Shown: positions 2,898-47,290 of the stretch, one piece after another
Layout of the letters: each line of letters starts with the position of its first letter
Numbering within the stretch: position 1 is the first letter of the stretch
Origin: a virus
Direction: 5' to 3' (one strand)
IMG/VR virus record: IMGVR_UViG_3300049172_000080
Location: 1 to 64,000 of that record
DNA length: 64,000 bases
Notes under the pieces: generated by a model
Seen by the model: only the letters and a program-made list of their open reading frames with translations
The model's database searches: none
What the model was told of the DNA's origin: nothing
Position numbers and translations under genes: made by a program

Positions 2898-2976
2898 GCC
2901 TGTGTCCTGTCTGCTGTGTTCCTGTGGCCTCCGCCGCCGGTGGCGAGGGAGGGGAGCCGGTGGAACGTGGCTCCGG

Positions 2977-3059
2977 TGCGCGGCCGGGTCTCGAACCCGG
3001 ATCTGTTGGACTGGATCGGGACAGTCCAACTGCTCTGTGCCTGTTGAGCTACCGCGCGT
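2977..3059 (-). ncRNA. tRNA-like element with aberrant anticodon arm
   Basis: 83 nt on the minus strand. Acceptor CGCGCGG/CCGCGCA (C1:A72 mismatch), U8, D arm GCTC-AACAGGCACA-GAGC, T arm CCGGG-TTCGAGA-CCCGG. The anticodon arm is a 9-bp stem GTTGGACTG/CAGTCCAAC with an 8-nt loop TCCCGATC. Confidence 0.45.
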
Positions 3060-38481: not shown

Positions 38482-39489
38482 ATGCCTCTCACTCCCACAG
38501 TGCTCGTCATCAGCGCACCCGATGACCTGAGTGCAGATCTCGTGATACGGCAGATCCAGGAACGTGGAGTCAGCATTCACCGCGTCAACCCCGCTGACCT
38601 CGCGCGCCCGGGTCTCCTGCGAATGACCGGCATCTCGGACGAGGAACCCCTGAGGTTCAAGATCGACGATGGTCACCGCGTCACACTCTCGCAGTCGGTC
38701 GCGTCCGTTTTCTGGTGGCACCCGGATCCACCCAGCCGCTGGGAGGAGGGAGAGTCCAGGGCCATCCTGGAGGACTTCCTTTACGGTCTCGATGACGTCC
38801 TGTGGGTCAACCACCCGCGCCGGGCCCAAGCGGCTCGGCCGGGCCCTCGGCAACTGAACATCGCGGCATCTCTGGGCTTCCGTACCCCGCCCGCGCTCTA
38901 CACCAACGACCCCGTCCAGGCTGCCGCCTTCGCCCGGGAGCAAGGCGGGCAGGTTGTGTGCAAGACACTCACTGCGCACCCTGACCGGTTCGTTCAGGCA
39001 CGGCTCACGACCGCCGAGGAGATCGAGGCCGCCGCAAACAGCGTGCGTCAGAACGTCGGCTACTTCCAGAAGCCGGTGGACAAGGTATGCGACGTCCGCT
39101 TAACCGTGGTCGGTGACCGGGCGTTCCCTTGCAGGATCACGTCCCCCGGCGCACTGGACTGGAGGGCGGTGCCTGAGACGGGCCTGGGTTTCGAGGTAGT
39201 GGGTATCAGCCTGCCCTTAAACCAGAAGGTTCAGAAACTCATGCAGGTTCTGGGTCTGGAGTACGCGGCGCTGGATTTCGCCGTCGACCAGAACGGCACC
39301 TGGTGGTTCCTGGAGGCGAACCCGGCCGGCCAGTTCGGGTTCGTGGAGGCCGCGACCGGCATGGTCATCTCACGAGCCATCTCTGATCACCTCGTGCAGA
39401 CCGCTCTGGCAACCCACGTCTACACCCCCGGCGGCGGCCACCACGCCTCTTCCGGGGCCCCGTGGCAGCGGGGTGGCGCCGACCGCTGA
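38482..39489 (+). CDS. ATP-grasp RiPP maturase (MvdC/MvdD-like macrocyclase)
   Basis: TVLVISAPDDLSADLVIRQIQERGVSIHRV N-terminus; central VVCKTL.. ATP-grasp body; YAALDFAVDQNGTWWFLEANPAGQFGFVE C-terminal motif. Confidence 0.8.
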   Translation: MPLTPTVLVISAPDDLSADLVIRQIQERGVSIHRVNPADLARPGLLRMTGISDEEPLRFKIDDGHRVTLSQSVASVFWWHPDPPSRWEEGESRAILEDFLYGLDDVLWVNHPRRAQAARPGPRQLNIAASLGFRTPPALYTNDPVQAAAFAREQGGQVVCKTLTAHPDRFVQARLTTAEEIEAAANSVRQNVGYFQKPVDKVCDVRLTVVGDRAFPCRITSPGALDWRAVPETGLGFEVVGISLPLNQKVQKLMQVLGLEYAALDFAVDQNGTWWFLEANPAGQFGFVEAATGMVISRAISDHLVQTALATHVYTPGGGHHASSGAPWQRGGADR

Positions 39490-40494: not shown

Positions 40495-42351
40495 GTGCCG
40501 TGGTACGACGCATTCCGGGGGCGTGTGGCCCGGGAGCCTGCCCCGCTGCCCCAGTCGCCGCCGGAGGCGCTGACGGCCGCCGCTGCTCCGCCTCCCGGCC
40601 CCGAGACCAAGTTCCTGCGCCGCACAGAGCAGTGGCAGGAGGAGGTCTGGCGCTTCCACGACACGCTCGGCGAGTTCAATTACGGCGTCGGGTGGTTGGC
40701 CAACATGCTGTCCCGGGTGCGCCTGCGCGCCGGCCGCCTGAAGCCGGGCTCCGATGAACCGGACATCGTCACCTCCGGTACGGCCGCTGACCTGATGATG
40801 CTGTTCGGCGGAGGGGTCGCCAGTCAGTCACAGCTCATGAGGCGCCTGACCGTACAGCTCTCCCTCCCGGGCGAGGGGTACCTGGTCGGCGAGACAGTGG
40901 GCAAGACCGAACGCTGGCAGGTCCGTTCCGTCGACGAGATCCGCGTGCAGTCCGGCAAATACCAGGTGATGGACGAAGAAAGCGCCACCACCGGCCAGGA
41001 CTGGCGCGACCTCGCCGAGGATCACCACGTCGTCCGCGTCTGGCGCCCGCACGACCGGTACTACCACATGGCAGACTCCCCGGCGCGCAGCGCCCGCGAC
41101 ATCATGCGAGAGCTGGAGCTGGTCAACCGGAAGATCACGGCCGAGTACCTCTCCCGCCTGGCCTCCGCCGGACTCCTCCTGCTCCCCGATGAGCTGAGCT
41201 TCCCGGTCCGCGAGGAGTTCGCCAACGACCCGGACAATGCCAACCCGCTGATGTCCGAGTGGATCGAGATTGCCGCGACGGCGATCCAGAACCCGGGAAC
41301 CGCGTCCGCCGTGGTTCCCATTCCGCTGGTCGGTCCGGCCGAGGCGATCGACAAGGTCAAGCACGTCGACTTCACGTTGAAGATCGACGAAAAGATTATC
41401 GAGAAGCGGGACAGCGCGATCAAGCGCCTGGCAACCAAGTTGGACATGCCGGCCGACGTGCTACTGGGTCTGGGTGACGTCAACCACTGGTCTGCCTGGC
41501 AGTTGGAGGAGGGCGCTCTCAAGACGCATATCGCCCCCATCGCTGAGCTGATCTGCGACGCCCTCACGCGCGGCTATCTCCAGCCCCGGCTGGAGGCGTC
41601 CGGCGAGGATCCGGCCGCCTGGGTCGTCTGGTACGACATGAGCGAGCTGGCTCTGAGCCCGGACCGCAGCGGCAACGCGACTCTGGCCTACGACCGGATG
41701 GAGCTGGGTGGCGCCGCGTACCGGCGAGAGCTGGGGTTCGACGAGGACGACGCGCCTTCGCCCGAAGACTTGAAGGAACAGGCCCTGAAGGTCATCATCC
41801 GCACGCTGCCGTCCGGCGCCGCGTCCGCCCTCGCCCAGCTCATCAGCGAGGACGTCCCGCAGATCGTCCCCGTCTCCCCGCAGGACCCCGGGACCGCCGA
41901 GGCCGTGCAGCAAGGCGACACCCCGCCGCCGGCGAACCAGCAGCCGACCGAGGAGGGCGCGGGCCGCGCGGCGCCGCCGTCCGACGAGCCGTCGCCGACG
42001 CAGGACCGCACCGGGCCGCCCTCCCGGGACCAGCGCGCCACGGCCGAGCGGGCGCAGCTCCTCGTGCAGCAGGCCCGGACGCAGCACATGCTCCGAGTCG
42101 GTGCGGCCAACCGGTGGGACCTGCTGCATCCCGGCATCTGCGGCGAGCACGAGTACTCCTGCCCGTTCACACACGCAGTCGCCACGGCGGCCCCGTCCGT
42201 ACGGCCCGGGACGTCGGGGACGTACCTGTGCCACCTGGACGCCTTCGGCCGCCTAGTTCTCGACGGCCGTAGTCCCTACGCGGACACCGCCGCCATGATC
42301 TCCACGTCACTGGTACCGAGGGCGGTGAACGGCCATGCCCCCGCGCACTGA
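40495..42351 (+). CDS. portal protein
   Basis: 618 aa, GTG after GGGGAGG; position ahead of MuF/protease/capsid; general resemblance to actinophage portals. Confidence 0.7.
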   Translation: MPWYDAFRGRVAREPAPLPQSPPEALTAAAAPPPGPETKFLRRTEQWQEEVWRFHDTLGEFNYGVGWLANMLSRVRLRAGRLKPGSDEPDIVTSGTAADLMMLFGGGVASQSQLMRRLTVQLSLPGEGYLVGETVGKTERWQVRSVDEIRVQSGKYQVMDEESATTGQDWRDLAEDHHVVRVWRPHDRYYHMADSPARSARDIMRELELVNRKITAEYLSRLASAGLLLLPDELSFPVREEFANDPDNANPLMSEWIEIAATAIQNPGTASAVVPIPLVGPAEAIDKVKHVDFTLKIDEKIIEKRDSAIKRLATKLDMPADVLLGLGDVNHWSAWQLEEGALKTHIAPIAELICDALTRGYLQPRLEASGEDPAAWVVWYDMSELALSPDRSGNATLAYDRMELGGAAYRRELGFDEDDAPSPEDLKEQALKVIIRTLPSGAASALAQLISEDVPQIVPVSPQDPGTAEAVQQGDTPPPANQQPTEEGAGRAAPPSDEPSPTQDRTGPPSRDQRATAERAQLLVQQARTQHMLRVGAANRWDLLHPGICGEHEYSCPFTHAVATAAPSVRPGTSGTYLCHLDAFGRLVLDGRSPYADTAAMISTSLVPRAVNGHAPAH

Positions 42352-45322
42352 CCACCAGCACCCGCCGCTCGTGACGGCAGCCGCCGACGGCTCGCACACG
42401 CAGGGCTGCATGATCGCCCTCATGCCGGCGGCAGAGAACGCAGAACGCTTGGCGATACCGGGCGGGGAACCGGCCGAGGAGCTGCACTGCACGCTGCGCT
42501 ATCTGGGCAAGGCAGACACGCACGGCGCTGACGCGCGCACGTCCCTCATAGAGGAGATGCGCAGGCTCAGCCGAGATCTTCCGCCGATCACGTCCAAGAT
42601 CTTCGGGGCCGCGCACTGGAACGGTAATGGCCCCGAGCCGTCATGGGTGTGGTCCGTAGGGGACCTGCCTGACGGGGTGTCTTTGAACGCCGCTCACGAG
42701 ATGGCCAACGAAGCCGTGTGGGCGACGGCCCTTGAAGTCCCCCGACCGCACAGCCCCTGGGTCGCCCACATCTGCGCCGCGTACAGCGATGACCCGGAAT
42801 TCCTCGCGGAGATGGAGCAGCGGCTCGGCGAGGTGACGTTCGACCGCATCCGGGTCAGCTTCGGTGACGAAGACCACGACATCCCGCTGACCGGCGACGC
42901 GGTGACGGCCGCCGCCGGGCCGTTGCGTCGGGAGCCGACCGAGCTGGAGATGGCTTCGCGCGTCGACTTCGCCTCCGTGCACCGCGAGTGGGAGGCGGCG
43001 ACGAACCGGGCGATGCAGTCACTGAGGTCTACGACGGCCGCCTGGCGCCTGGACCTGCGGCAGCAAATCGCCCGCGACCTCGCCGACGACGCCCTGGACT
43101 CCATCCCCGAGCTGACCCTGGACAGCCGGGCCGCCACGGCCACGCTGCTCAGCCTCATGGAGGAGTACGCGGTCAAGGCCGGTCGGGCGTGCCAGCGCGA
43201 GGCGGAGCAGCAAGGCATCGCCGTGCCGGACTGGTCACTGCCCGACGGCGGCGAAGACGCGGTCACCGCCGCGCTCACCGGGCGGCGACTGCTGACGTCC
43301 GTCGCGGAGCTGACCAGCGACCTCATGTCCGGCGCATTGCTGACGGCCGCGAAGCGGAAACTCTCCGGCCTGCTGCGCTCGAACCGGCCGACGAACCAGA
43401 TCGCTGCCGAGGTGGATCGGGAGCTGGCCACGGTCGACGACACCACCGTGCGCGCCGCCGTGGGCTCCGCGATGACGGCCGCTCAGAACGCCGGACGGTA
43501 CGCCGTGATGGAAGCCGCTCCGCTGGCGCAGTCGTACGTGGCCAGCGAGATCCTGGACCGCCGCACGTGCGAGCCGTGCAAGGACATCGACGGCCGTACC
43601 TTCACCTCCCTGGACGGCGCCGTGGCGGAGTACCCGGTCATGGGCTACCGCGACTGCACCGGCGCCCGCTACGGCAACGCCTGTCGTGGCTTCATCATCG
43701 CCGTCTGGCAGGAAGTGCGAAGCCCGGCGACTACGGCGAGCGCCGATACCCAACCGGCCGCACAGGACGCGGCGAAAGGAGATCAGTCCATGACGACCGA
43801 AGCAGCGACCGAAGCGACCGAGGCCCTGAGCAAGGGCGACCCGAACCCTGGCACGCCGAAGGACAAGCGGCTCAAGGAGAACCAGAAGGCGGCCGAGGAG
43901 AAGCAGTGCCCGCCCGGCATGGAGCTGGACGAGGAGTCTGGCGAGTGCGTGCCGGAGTCCGATGAGGAAGAGGCGGCCGGGGGCACGACGGCGCTGCGCG
44001 GCGAGCACGGCCCGGAGACCCTGGCCCACGGCGCGGCGGCTGACGCCGAGAAGGTGACCGGCCCGCCGGTCAGCGAGATGGGCGCCGGGGACACCGCGCC
44101 GTGGCGTGGCCCGCTGACCGTGGAGGGCATAGAGACCGGCGACGGCCGCGAGTTCAAGCCGGACGCACTCACCTGGGCTGATCTGCCTCTGCCGCTGCGC
44201 TGGAACAAAGAGGACTCCCACGGCGGGGAACCGCACACCGTGGCGGTCAATGTCGGCCGCATCGACAAGGTGTGGCGCGAGGACGGCGGCCTGGTCATGG
44301 GCGAGGGCGTGCTGGACCTGTCCACCGAGGACGGCCGCACCGTCCACGGCAAGATCAAGGGCCAATTCCTGCGCGGGGTGTCCGTGGACGTTGACTCCAT
44401 CAAGGACGCCGACATGGAGCTGGTGTGGCCGGCCGACCCGGACGCCGACGGCGAGGGCTCCCCGTTCGACATGCTGTTCGCGTCGCCGGAAAAGGTGGTT
44501 TTCAACCGAGGCCGCATCCGCGCGGCGACGCTGGTGGACATCCCGGCGTTCGCCGAGGCGTACATCGCGTTGCTGGACGAGGCGGGGGCCGTCGTCGCCG
44601 GCGGGGAGCCGATCGGCGCGGTGCGTGAGACGCGTGTCCGGTCGGTTCAGGCGCGCACGGTGGAGGCGCCGCTGCGTCCGCCGGCCGGCTGGTTCGCCAA
44701 CCCGGGTCTGTCCGTGCCGACGGGGATTACCGTCACGCCGGAGGGTCGGGTCTACGGGCACGCCGCGCTGTGGGGGACGTGTCACATCGGGCAGGAGGGT
44801 GTGTGCGTCACCCCGCCGCACGAGGAGTCCCACCCGTACTACATGACCGGCAACGTCTGGACGGAGGACGGCTCGTCGGTGTCCGTCGGCCAGATCACCG
44901 TCGGCACCGGGCACGCGCCACTGTCCTACGGCTACCGGGCGGCGGCTGACCATTACGACAACACCGGCGCGGCCGTGGCCGACGTCGCGGTGGGCAACGA
45001 CGCGCACGGTATCTGGGTCGCCGGGTCCATCCGCCCCAAGACCCCGGAGTCGCGCATCCACGAGCTGCGCGCGGCTGGTCAGGTGTCCGGCGACTGGCGC
45101 CGCATCGGCGGGAACCTGCGCCTGGTGGGTCTGCTCGCGGTGAACGTCCCCGGCTTCCCGGTCCCCAAGCTGAAGACGCACCTGACGTCCGGTCAGCAGC
45201 TCGCCCTCGTCGCGGCGGGTATCCCGCAGCTCAGTGAATCGCTGAGCGAGGAGGAGCTGGACCAGTGGGCTTACCGCCGCGTCCTCAAGACCCTGTCCCG
45301 ACAGGTACACGGAGAGGAGTGA
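42335..45322 (+). CDS. 2H-phosphoesterase / MuF-like head morphogenesis / capsid maturation protease fusion ORF
   Basis: N-term LHCTLRYLG and PWVAHICAAY (HxTx / HxCx); MuF motif ILDRRTCEPCKDIDGRTF; internal AAAGGAGA-ATG at 43790; protease-like GIETGDGREF..LPLPLRWN and GHAALWGTCHIG; no stop between the modules. Confidence 0.7.
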   Translation: MPPRTDHQHPPLVTAAADGSHTQGCMIALMPAAENAERLAIPGGEPAEELHCTLRYLGKADTHGADARTSLIEEMRRLSRDLPPITSKIFGAAHWNGNGPEPSWVWSVGDLPDGVSLNAAHEMANEAVWATALEVPRPHSPWVAHICAAYSDDPEFLAEMEQRLGEVTFDRIRVSFGDEDHDIPLTGDAVTAAAGPLRREPTELEMASRVDFASVHREWEAATNRAMQSLRSTTAAWRLDLRQQIARDLADDALDSIPELTLDSRAATATLLSLMEEYAVKAGRACQREAEQQGIAVPDWSLPDGGEDAVTAALTGRRLLTSVAELTSDLMSGALLTAAKRKLSGLLRSNRPTNQIAAEVDRELATVDDTTVRAAVGSAMTAAQNAGRYAVMEAAPLAQSYVASEILDRRTCEPCKDIDGRTFTSLDGAVAEYPVMGYRDCTGARYGNACRGFIIAVWQEVRSPATTASADTQPAAQDAAKGDQSMTTEAATEATEALSKGDPNPGTPKDKRLKENQKAAEEKQCPPGMELDEESGECVPESDEEEAAGGTTALRGEHGPETLAHGAAADAEKVTGPPVSEMGAGDTAPWRGPLTVEGIETGDGREFKPDALTWADLPLPLRWNKEDSHGGEPHTVAVNVGRIDKVWREDGGLVMGEGVLDLSTEDGRTVHGKIKGQFLRGVSVDVDSIKDADMELVWPADPDADGEGSPFDMLFASPEKVVFNRGRIRAATLVDIPAFAEAYIALLDEAGAVVAGGEPIGAVRETRVRSVQARTVEAPLRPPAGWFANPGLSVPTGITVTPEGRVYGHAALWGTCHIGQEGVCVTPPHEESHPYYMTGNVWTEDGSSVSVGQITVGTGHAPLSYGYRAAADHYDNTGAAVADVAVGNDAHGIWVAGSIRPKTPESRIHELRAAGQVSGDWRRIGGNLRLVGLLAVNVPGFPVPKLKTHLTSGQQLALVAAGIPQLSESLSEEELDQWAYRRVLKTLSRQVHGEE

Positions 45323-45499
45323 TCACAATGTGTGGCTGCAACCGTCCCGCACCGCCCCCGCCGCCGCAGCCGGAACCGATCGGCGGCTGACCAGCGACAA
45401 CGGCCGAATCGTCAGAGTCCTTGTGACTTTTGGCGATTCGGCCGTTTGTATGTACGGTGCGCGCCGACTTGATCTCGGCAGCTTCCCACGGAGGTTTCA

Positions 45500-47290
45500 G
45501 TGCCGGAACCGGAGCTTTTCACCGCACCTGACGACCTCTCCCTGGTGGGCGAGGCCGATCTGCGCGAACTGGAGACCAACGCGGTCGGCGAGTTCGACCG
45601 CGTCAATGGCCTCCAGCACATCACGCCCGAACACATCAGCTACAGCGAACGCCTCACGCGCGACCTGGACCGCATCCGCGCCGAGCTGCGCGTGCGCGCG
45701 GTCCGCGCGGAGGAAGAGGCCGCCACCGCACAGCAGGAGGCGACGCGGCGCATGGCGCTGCTGCGTCAGTCCGTGCACGCCGGTGAGGGCGGCGGAGGCG
45801 GTGACGGAGGCGAGGGCGCCGCCCCCGTCACCGCCGGCGGCCGTGTCGACCTCGCGGCGCTGACCGAGGCCACGGCCAAGGGCGTGGCGTCGATCCTGTT
45901 CGGAGACCAGGCGCCGGAGTCCGTGCGCAAGCGCGTCGCCTCCCTGTCGCAGGTGCGTGAGCGCGCCCCGCAGGCCAAGGCACCGAACGCGCAGACCATG
46001 GCCGTGACGGCCAGCGTTGACATCCCCGGCGTGGCGGCCGGCCAGTCCATGCCGACGCTGGAGGCCCTGGGCGAGGCGTTCCGCGCCAAGGCCAAGGCAG
46101 TCCCCACCACGCAGTACGGCGATCGTGGCGCACCGCGCCACCTGGTGGCCTCGGTGCGCAACCAGTTCGACCACACCGTGGACGACCGCACCTCCGCCTC
46201 CACGGTGGAGGAGCTGTGGCACTCGATGACGCAGGCGGGCGGCAAGGCCGAGGCCCTGCTGGCCGGCGGTGGCTGGTGCGCCCCGTCGGAAGTCTCCTAC
46301 GACTTCTTCAACATCGCCGACACTCCGGTGGGTCTCGTCGACCTGCCGACCGTCGGCGTTTCCCGGGGCGGCATCCGCTTCCCCGTCTCCCCGTCCATCG
46401 GGGACGTGTTCTTCCAGAACGCGGGCAGCAACCCGGCCTCCGGGTTCGGCGGGTTCGGCGTCACCTTCTCCAACGCGAGCGACCCGTGGCTGTGGACCGA
46501 GGCCGATGACATCGCCACCGTCACCGGCTCGGTGAACAAGCCGACCCTGCGCGTGCCGTGCCCGACGTTCGATGAGGCTCGGCTGGAGGCGTACGGCATC
46601 AGCCTCACCGCCGGTAACCTCACCGACGACGCGTACCCCGAAGCCACGCAGAACTTCATCAGGTTGCTGCGGGCCGCCTACGCGCACGTCATCAACGCCC
46701 GGCTCATCTCCCTCATGGTGGCCCGGTCCACCTCGGCGATCGCTCTTGGCGGGTCGAACAAGCCGGCCGCGCAGACCCTGCTCAACGGCGTGGAGCTGGC
46801 GGCGATCGACTACCGCGCCAAGTTCGCCATGCGTGAGGACGCGGTGCTGGAGGTCGTCCTGCCGCGCTGGACGCTCGCGGTCATCCGGGCCGACCTCGCC
46901 TGGCGGACCAAGGTGGAGCGGGAGTCGGTGTCGGACGCGCAGATCACAGCCTGGTTCACGGACCGGTCGGTGCGCCCGCAGTTCGTCTCCGACTGGCAGG
47001 TGCGCGGCTCCGGCCAGTTCGGCCGCGTGGACACGAACATGACGGCGTGGCCGACGGCGGTGGACTTCATGATGTACGCCGCCGGCACCTTCCTTCACGG
47101 CAACGGCCTCCAGCTCGACCTCGGCGTCATCCGCGACAGCGTGCTGAACGCGGAAAACGATTACACGGCCCTGTGGGCGGAGGAAGCGCACCTGGTCGCC
47201 AAGGTCGGCCACGAGTCCCGCCTGTACCGGGCGACGCTCGCGGTCAACGGCTCGGGCAGCGCTGACCAGACCCTCGGTCACCAGCTCTGA
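45500..47290 (+). CDS. major capsid protein (HK97 fold) with an N-terminal scaffold-like coiled coil
   Basis: 596 aa; GTG after GGAGG; N-terminal helical region with a Gly-rich hinge, then a capsid-like body; position after the protease. Confidence 0.7.
   Translation: MPEPELFTAPDDLSLVGEADLRELETNAVGEFDRVNGLQHITPEHISYSERLTRDLDRIRAELRVRAVRAEEEAATAQQEATRRMALLRQSVHAGEGGGGGDGGEGAAPVTAGGRVDLAALTEATAKGVASILFGDQAPESVRKRVASLSQVRERAPQAKAPNAQTMAVTASVDIPGVAAGQSMPTLEALGEAFRAKAKAVPTTQYGDRGAPRHLVASVRNQFDHTVDDRTSASTVEELWHSMTQAGGKAEALLAGGGWCAPSEVSYDFFNIADTPVGLVDLPTVGVSRGGIRFPVSPSIGDVFFQNAGSNPASGFGGFGVTFSNASDPWLWTEADDIATVTGSVNKPTLRVPCPTFDEARLEAYGISLTAGNLTDDAYPEATQNFIRLLRAAYAHVINARLISLMVARSTSAIALGGSNKPAAQTLLNGVELAAIDYRAKFAMREDAVLEVVLPRWTLAVIRADLAWRTKVERESVSDAQITAWFTDRSVRPQFVSDWQVRGSGQFGRVDTNMTAWPTAVDFMMYAAGTFLHGNGLQLDLGVIRDSVLNAENDYTALWAEEAHLVAKVGHESRLYRATLAVNGSGSADQTLGHQL

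Follow-up and report, generated by a model that had tools for sequence, protein, structure and literature searches.

The stretch analyzed here (the window) comprises 64,000 nucleotides of viral DNA, positions 1 to 64,000 of the IMG/VR record IMGVR_UViG_3300049172_000080, and contains at 42335..45322 (+ strand) an open reading frame (ORF) of 995 codons that appears to encode a head polyprotein, in which a 2H phosphoesterase domain is joined to a MuF-like segment and to a capsid maturation protease region. The source record is a complete virus, 95,700 bases long and bounded by direct terminal repeats. The ORF list and the translation agree that the frame runs without a stop, as claimed in a preliminary description made from the sequence alone, and all the strings quoted there occur in it (HCTL at residues 51-54, HICA at 145-148, VTFDRIRVSFG, GIETGDGREF, LPLPLRWN and GHAALWGTCHIG among them). 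The order along the protein is 2H, MuF-like segment, linker, two modules that we designate d1 and d2, and a C-terminal helix. Upstream lies the portal gene (40495..42351, +; phrog_776, E value of 1e-131), whose last 17 nt are shared with the beginning of the polyprotein ORF, and downstream the major capsid protein gene (45500..47290, +; phrog_777, E value of 6e-123), followed by the genes for the major tail and tape measure proteins. With the portal ending at 42351 and the ORF starting at 42335, the polyprotein occupies the position of a MuF-type gene, i.e., directly after the portal and within the head module. The closest cellular records with homologues of the polyprotein are Streptomyces assemblies, and the nearest isolate is the Streptomyces phage TurkishDelight, with a genome of 93.6 kb.

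The N-terminal domain (residues ~20-186; 42392..42892, +) is a LigT-like 2H phosphoesterase and not a member of the Acb1 family. Residues 12-186 match phrog_2659 (“RNA ligase”) with an E value of 2.6e-29. The score of the window protein with PF02834 (LigT_PEase) was 12.6 to 17.1 bits, under the cut-off of 23.3, and more distant relatives reach PF13563 with an E value of 7e-12; a sequence search of the PDB with the 2H domain alone gave no match. An AlphaFold2 model of residues 1-200, built on a 31-row alignment from which rows from annotated-record loci were left out, had a predicted local distance difference test (pLDDT) of 86.7 and a predicted template modeling score (pTM) of 0.80. Foldseek retrieved 41 PDB matches to this model at E values of ≤1e-3, almost all of them 2H enzymes, including Escherichia coli LigT, Thermus thermophilus TT0787, Deinococcus radiodurans CPDase, Usb1, plant CPDase, rotavirus VP3, AKAP18, and Acb1; the best was LigT (5ldm, E value of 1.7e-6). 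The 2H layout read from the motifs in the preliminary description is, in this way, confirmed by profile, family and fold, the last by the kind of structure prediction over residues 1-200 that had been proposed there as a check.

The twin H-x-T/S motifs are found at the expected separation of ~80-100 residues, with Cys in the second one. Motif 1 is H51-C-T53-L (42485..42496, +) and motif 2 is H145-I-C147-A (42767..42778, +). A word-indexed search with the isolated 200-aa domain detected few standalone homologues, and an exhaustive HMMER search was needed, which recovered 1886 cluster representatives at E values of ≤1e-3. Conservation was counted in the best 146 of these 1886 representatives (clusters ≤50% identical). 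H51 and T53 were present in all 146 and H145 in 145, and position 147 (codon 42773-42775) was occupied by Cys in 78 representatives and by Thr in 64, the others having Ala (3) or Ser (1). The substitution of Cys for Thr/Ser in motif 2 had been pointed out before, and since Cys and Thr alternate across such diverged representatives, Cys147 can be considered a family-wide alternative to Thr rather than a sign of decay. Judging from these patterns, the domain resembles an enzyme maintained by purifying selection and is apparently active.

The second region (residues ~196-460; 42920..43714, +) resembles MuF/SPP1 gp7 in weak matches to PF04233 and TIGR01641, the Pfam core being at residues 355-428 (nt 43397-43618). 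Weak PF04233 matches were also obtained for 10 of the 31 alignment members scanned (best E value of 8.5e-5), and the region is colinear with residues 160-272 of SPP1 gp7, with a score of only 7.8 bits. The MuF-like stretch ILDRRTCEPCKDIDGRTF (residues 405-422) follows the pattern D-x-x-T-C-x-x-C-x-x-x-D-G. In two isolates, TurkishDelight (gp15) and TP1604 (gp11), the MuF part of the homologous protein scores above the Pfam cut-off. For the MuF segment proposed earlier, the stretch itself is present, and the weak profile matches and the colinearity with gp7 speak for it, but the curated cut-offs are missed; the MuF assignment is weak for the window sequence yet appears consistent across the family.

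Toward the C terminus, matches to actinophage “capsid maturation protease” families (E value of ~1e-84) cover residues ~578-968. The AlphaFold2 model of residues 567-995 (pLDDT of 71, pTM of 0.41) is composed of two beta-rich modules and a C-terminal helix. Weak profiles and conserved columns suggest that the beta-rich d1 (residues ~586-756; 44090..44602, +) is similar to prohead proteases of the HK97/T4 type, with His629 and Ser683 invariant. TIGR01543 gave a weak match to it (residues 634-692, 13.3 bits versus a cut-off of 59), and PF03420 (S77) matched it below threshold in 17 of 40 relatives, ending at an invariant RGVS motif. The second module, d2 (residues ~786-936; 44690..45142, +; phrog_18402, E value of 5e-68), is where the actinophage “capsid maturation protease” is most conserved, and by itself forms the N terminus of gp18 of Gordonia phage YungMoney, which bears that same annotation. 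Its invariant residues are His873, Ser918, His809, Cys816, His817, and Cys824. It should be noted that His809, Cys816, His817, and Cys824 could make up a metal site. Each module has one His/Ser pair at protease-like spacing (~45-55 residues), H629/S683 in d1 and H873/S918 in d2, invariant in 40 relatives. The amphipathic helix at the end (residues ~972-992; 45248..45310, +; H406-426 of the 429-residue modeled segment) is a candidate capsid-targeting tail. The homology to actinophage capsid maturation proteases agrees with the protease-like region of the preliminary description, but not all of its evidence falls in one place: GHAALWGTCHIG is located in d2 (~786-936) and the weak S77/S78 matches in d1 (~586-756).

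Many of the matches of the C-terminal model in BFVD are annotated as HK97-family prohead proteases (E values of 5e-6 to 2e-4, with the matched domain not resolved). Matches to MCE/LetB obtained with the same model (Foldseek, PDB) were dismissed as spurious; the model is a poor Foldseek query because it is multidomain with a pTM of 0.41. A PDB sequence search with the C-terminal profile gave no match, and the hhalign comparison of this profile, or of either half, with the single sequence of HK97 gp4 was insignificant; a shuffle test against HK97 gp4 gave a p of ~0.015-0.02 for each half. No internal duplication was evident when d1 and d2 were compared by hhalign. The search of the whole genome with PF04586 and PF03420 gave nothing at E values of ≤10, so, there being no other S77/S78 match in the genome, the C-terminal region is the only candidate for the prohead protease.

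The MuF-like and protease regions are separated by an acidic, low-complexity, and poorly conserved linker (residues ~461-585; 43715..44089, +), recognizable by variable alignment columns and by pLDDT values of <50 at the beginning of the C-terminal model. Within it, a Shine-Dalgarno sequence (SD), AAAGGAGA (43775-43782), precedes by a 7-nt spacer an in-frame ATG (43790-43792) that corresponds to Met486, the whole signal spanning 43775..43792 (+). Initiation here would give a nested in-frame product of 510 aa (43790..45322, +) that begins in the linker and continues through d1 and d2 to the C-terminal helix. Of the 79 viral loci related to this one, most have one fused ORF, and 8 carry 2H-MuF and protease as separate genes. 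We searched the fused ORFs for internal starts, defined as an SD core of at least 5 bases located 4-10 nt ahead of an in-frame ATG or GTG, and 54 of 61 distinct ORFs have one in the interval from the MuF motif to the protease. These sites cluster ~65 codons past the Cys motif of MuF, and their density in the MuF-protease interval is 7.2 per 1000 codons versus 2.5 elsewhere in the same ORFs. The peptide encoded at the site varies (KGD, EGD, EEA, QGG, KGG, and EEG), whereas the GGAG/GGAGG core is retained, which indicates selection on the RNA and not on the protein. A conserved internal ribosome-binding site with an in-frame start, as expected for a nested gene of the lambda C/Nu3 type, is therefore found here.

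A further comparison is provided by one relative (L022, 83-88% identical) in which the MuF ORF runs into an ADP-ribosyltransferase (ART) domain and stops, and the protease gene is then separate. The ATG of that gene is orthologous to Met486 and stands behind the same GGAAGGAGA, and the ~20 codons ahead of Met486 in the window are the counterpart of an untranslated leader in L022. The conserved SD and start, together with the orthologous start of a free-standing gene, imply that in the window virus the protease is very probably made alone as well, as a second product of 510 aa predicted from the nested start. The two proposals made earlier on this point, i.e., that the SD and ATG at 43790 act as an internal start and that a protease is made separately from it in the manner of lambda C/Nu3, have thus gained comparative support.

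An ART toxin domain (PF03496/PF01129) follows MuF in relatives with 83-90% identity, and the protease is then a separate gene (L022:245-3968, L019, L037, and L065; proteins P0003, P0010, P0012, P0027, and P0029). Very close phages differ in whether they have this cassette at the MuF C terminus, and compared to these relatives, the window fusion lacks the cassette together with its stop codon. A 1369-aa homologue of the polyprotein (P0072) carries an intein splicing domain (PF14890).

The 2H domain has been joined to many partners. Among its 146 closest representatives, 53 have the window-type protease and 19 the MuF of the window clade. In 43 other representatives, Pfam detected MuF (11), portal (7), ART (8), Mu-like protease (8), ClpP (2), SDH protease (2), and Zeta toxin (1). 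Module order also varies, being 2H-MuF-d1-d2 in the window protein, MuF-2H-d1-d2 in TurkishDelight gp15 and TP1604 gp11, 2H-d1-d2 in Kithara gp23, and d2-X-2H in Geodirt gp16, and YungMoney has two adjacent genes, gp18 and gp19. As to annotation, many homologues are labeled “2'-5' RNA ligase” by JGI, and the SEA-PHAGES labels on isolates are “capsid maturation protease and MuF-like fusion protein” or “RNA ligase.”

Some other features surround the locus. Directly after the polyprotein there is a 177-codon ORF (45330-45863) without a PHROG match, which runs, in another frame, ~360 nt into the major capsid ORF (start at 45500); in relatives, this place is taken by a short hypothetical gene. Just upstream of the portal, the gene at 39619-40419 matches Pfam GP88 (PF17338, E value of 1e-59) and an ATP-grasp-like gene (phrog_2599) is found at 38482-39489. 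In the window, the portal is not preceded by a terminase gene. ARAGORN predicted an odd tRNA-like gene at 2975-3058 (-) with a two-base anticodon call (tRNA-???).

All of these data allow a reading of what the polyprotein could do. An effector domain, a head-internal carrier, a late head gene setting, and a C-terminal protease region, the marks of “polyvalent” head-packaged effectors, occur together, and we consider it an even call that the ORF product is a head-morphogenesis polyprotein of this class from a Streptomyces-type siphophage. Residence in the procapsid interior is the sole trait common to the 2H fusion partners, so packaging into the virion is the best reading, and from the repeated independent fusions to MuF, portal, and several prohead proteases, we infer that the 2H domain is packaged. 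The idea has precedents. In their survey of polyvalent proteins, Iyer, Burroughs, Anand, de Souza, and Aravind (Iyer et al. 2017, PMC5512222, section 20) described 2H fused to MuF or portal and assemblin-like peptidases at the C termini of polyvalent proteins, and proposed for 2H either an RNase role or the breakdown of 2'-5' oligoadenylate and cyclic nucleotide defense signals. Section 21 of a later survey (Iyer et al. 2022, PMC9503650) takes such fusions to suggest packaging and injection against SMODS, cyclic-mononucleotide, and CRISPR signaling. Both the fusion type and the notion of a packaged effector are thus already published in these sections, and our reading of the window restates that prediction.

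In such a scheme, the full-length polyprotein would enter the procapsid by means of its MuF and protease parts. After assembly, the protease would be activated and cut the linker, leaving 2H-MuF inside the head, and 2H-MuF would exit with the DNA at infection. Ejection with the DNA would place the enzyme in the host cytoplasm ahead of any phage gene expression. As for the activity, the candidate that we place first, although we would not call it probable, is hydrolysis of host immune nucleotide signals (cyclic oligonucleotides, 2'-5'-linked or 2',3'-cyclic species, as in CBASS, type III CRISPR, or Pycsar-like systems). The complete proposal is more tentative still. It holds that the H-x-T/H-x-C 2H module is a preloaded counterdefense enzyme, of which a few copies would ride in on MuF and destroy cyclic-oligonucleotide or 2'-5'-linked messengers before expression starts, the protease, coming mostly from the nested start, having freed the cargo in the head.

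Several observations weigh against the overall reading. The 2H domain is nearer to LigT/CPDase (Foldseek E value of 1.7e-6) than to Acb1 (2e-4), and the Acb1 profile PF23474 has no match in the window protein and reached only 1 of 31 relatives (E value of 0.0011). Motif 2 carries Cys at the predicted catalytic position where the canonical form has Thr/Ser. In the window protein, the MuF scores remain below the curated cut-offs, both for PF04233 (E value of 2.3e-4, 22.3 bits versus 29.6) and for TIGR01641 (E value of 3e-4, 21.1 bits versus 39.65), and the same is true of the curated profiles on which a protease assignment would be based. The fold search of the PDB with the C-terminal model gave no significant match (T4 gp21, 5jbl, had an E value of 1.3). 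Solo 2H homologues exist in cluster C mycobacteriophages beside thyX, outside the head module, as in the myophage Ghost of Mycobacterium (gp94; L088, 39607-40158), where the ThyX and HNH genes adjoin, and these solo copies indicate that packaging is not universal for the 2H family. Finally, a literature search for experiments on any member of the family found no virion proteomics and no enzymology.

A packaged 2H enzyme could act instead on RNA, either opening the 2',3'-cyclic phosphate ends left by host RNases of the anticodon or HEPN type, so that host ligases could reseal the tRNA, or working as a Usb1-like RNase effector on host RNA. We rank action on such RNA ends or a Usb1-like RNase role next among the activities, as a possibility that we hold with considerable reserve. 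The nearest structures (LigT, TT0787, CPDase, and Usb1) and the matches of relatives to PF13563 and PF02834, the 2'-5' RNA ligase/LigT families, speak for it, and an RNase is one of the two alternatives put forward in section 20 of Iyer et al. 2017 (PMC5512222), where it is drawn from the parallel with PBECR-MuF fusions. On the other hand, that section describes these 2H versions as never linked to RNA ligases (PMC5512222), and no RtcB or Rnl2-type RNA ligase was found in the phage genome (for T4 Rnl1, the control of the search was uninformative). A few copies per virion also seem ill suited to a stoichiometric repair of the tRNA pool. An RNA-repair operon, as a separate candidate, was rejected on the same genome search, which found neither RtcB nor an Rnl2-type ligase.

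The remaining alternatives deny delivery, activity, or the fusion itself. As established for HK97 gp4, a prohead protease and its fragments usually exit the capsid, and the window protease might likewise remove 2H, so that the mature particle loses it and the domain acts late in the producing cell or is merely coexpressed with the head genes. Solo homologues outside head modules, such as Ghost gp94 beside thyX, would fit this explanation, which we nonetheless find unlikely, as 2H has been fused independently and in varied orders to head-internal proteins of five kinds or more, among which portal and MuF remain in the particle; such independent fusions in differing orders make coexpression alone hard to accept. 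That the domain is an inactive enzyme kept as a structural or assembly module, with the Cys of motif 2 (a departure from canonical H-x-T/S) marking lost activity, is highly improbable given that both His and the first Thr are essentially invariant across the 146 diverged representatives, that position 147 can be either Cys or Thr (78 versus 64) without decay elsewhere in the site, and that the fold is predicted with confidence. We give equally little credit to the view that the long ORF is an assembly or annotation artifact, or a neutral read-through of MuF into the leader of the protease gene, in which case the separate products alone would matter. The separate protease gene of close relatives, starting at the orthologous ATG, and the correspondence of the ~20 codons before Met486 to their untranslated leader point in that direction, but 61 distinct ORFs, some with identities as low as 44%, have retained the in-frame fusion, and so have isolated and sequenced phages. 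The figure of 61 distinct fused ORFs versus 8 split forms would suggest selection for the fusion.

If the published prediction is right, actinobacterial phages inject a ready-made phosphodiesterase that, at time zero, disarms nucleotide-based immunity (CBASS, type III CRISPR, or Pycsar-like) or handles RNA damage. A preloaded 2H enzyme, if true, would be a form of immune evasion differing in its timing from expressed nucleases such as Acb1 and Apyc1 and from sponges. With its >1800 sequence clusters and with many SEA-PHAGES isolates cultured on laboratory hosts, the family is a tractable experimental target. The locus adds three modest points, i.e., the conserved nested start of the protease, the presence or absence of the ART cassette at the MuF C terminus, and the Cys/Thr dimorphism in motif 2. 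They leave the overall picture unchanged, and the locus is valuable as an easy experimental entry point rather than for its novelty.

The systems in sections 20 and 21 of the surveys by Iyer et al. (2017 and 2022) share with the window protein the 2H-MuF fusion, the C-terminal assemblin-like peptidase, the head-gene setting, and the predicted function. Both surveys are computational, and the window protein, the nested start, and the ART polymorphism are not among the descriptions in those sections. The closest annotated proteins are TurkishDelight gp15 (1147 aa) and TP1604 gp11 (1192 aa), which, like those of YDN12 and Xkcd426, are called “Capsid maturation protease and MuF-like fusion protein.” TurkishDelight and TP1604 have the same four modules (MuF, 2H, d1, and d2) between portal and major capsid genes, with 2H identities to the window of 50% and ~42%, respectively. 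However, their order is MuF-2H-protease and that of the window 2H-MuF-protease, their MuF passes the Pfam cut-off that the window sequence misses, and the 2H part goes unnamed in their annotation. The “RNA ligase” head proteins of Gordonia and Curtobacterium phages (Geodirt gp16, Kithara gp23, and YungMoney gp18/gp19) also have 2H and d2 (Kithara d1 too) and adjoin the capsid gene, but MuF is not in the same polypeptide, and the order or the gene split differs from the window.

Regarding the enzyme, E. coli LigT, T. thermophilus TT0787, and D. radiodurans CPDase are the best structural matches (E values of 1.7e-6 to 2.6e-6, template modeling [TM] scores of ~0.5-0.6) and have the twin His motifs; in contrast to the window domain, to which they are 15-20% identical, they are free-standing cellular enzymes, and the window has Cys, not Thr/Ser, in motif 2. 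Acb1 (T4 gp57B; phage FBB1, PDB 7T26/7T27) has the 2H fold as well and is used by phages to destroy immune signals made of cyclic oligonucleotides, but the structural match is weaker (7t27, E value of 2e-4, TM of 0.38/0.51), and Acb1 is small, soluble, and early, and not known as packaged. In lambda C/Nu3, an internal in-frame start in the head-protease gene leads to a shorter C-terminal product, which is a scaffold, whereas the nested product predicted in the window is the protease itself. In MuF-toxin fusions, MuF carries a variable effector domain at its C-terminal side. In the window protein, the 2H effector is N-terminal to MuF, and in its close relatives, the variable domain carried by MuF is an ADP-ribosyltransferase.

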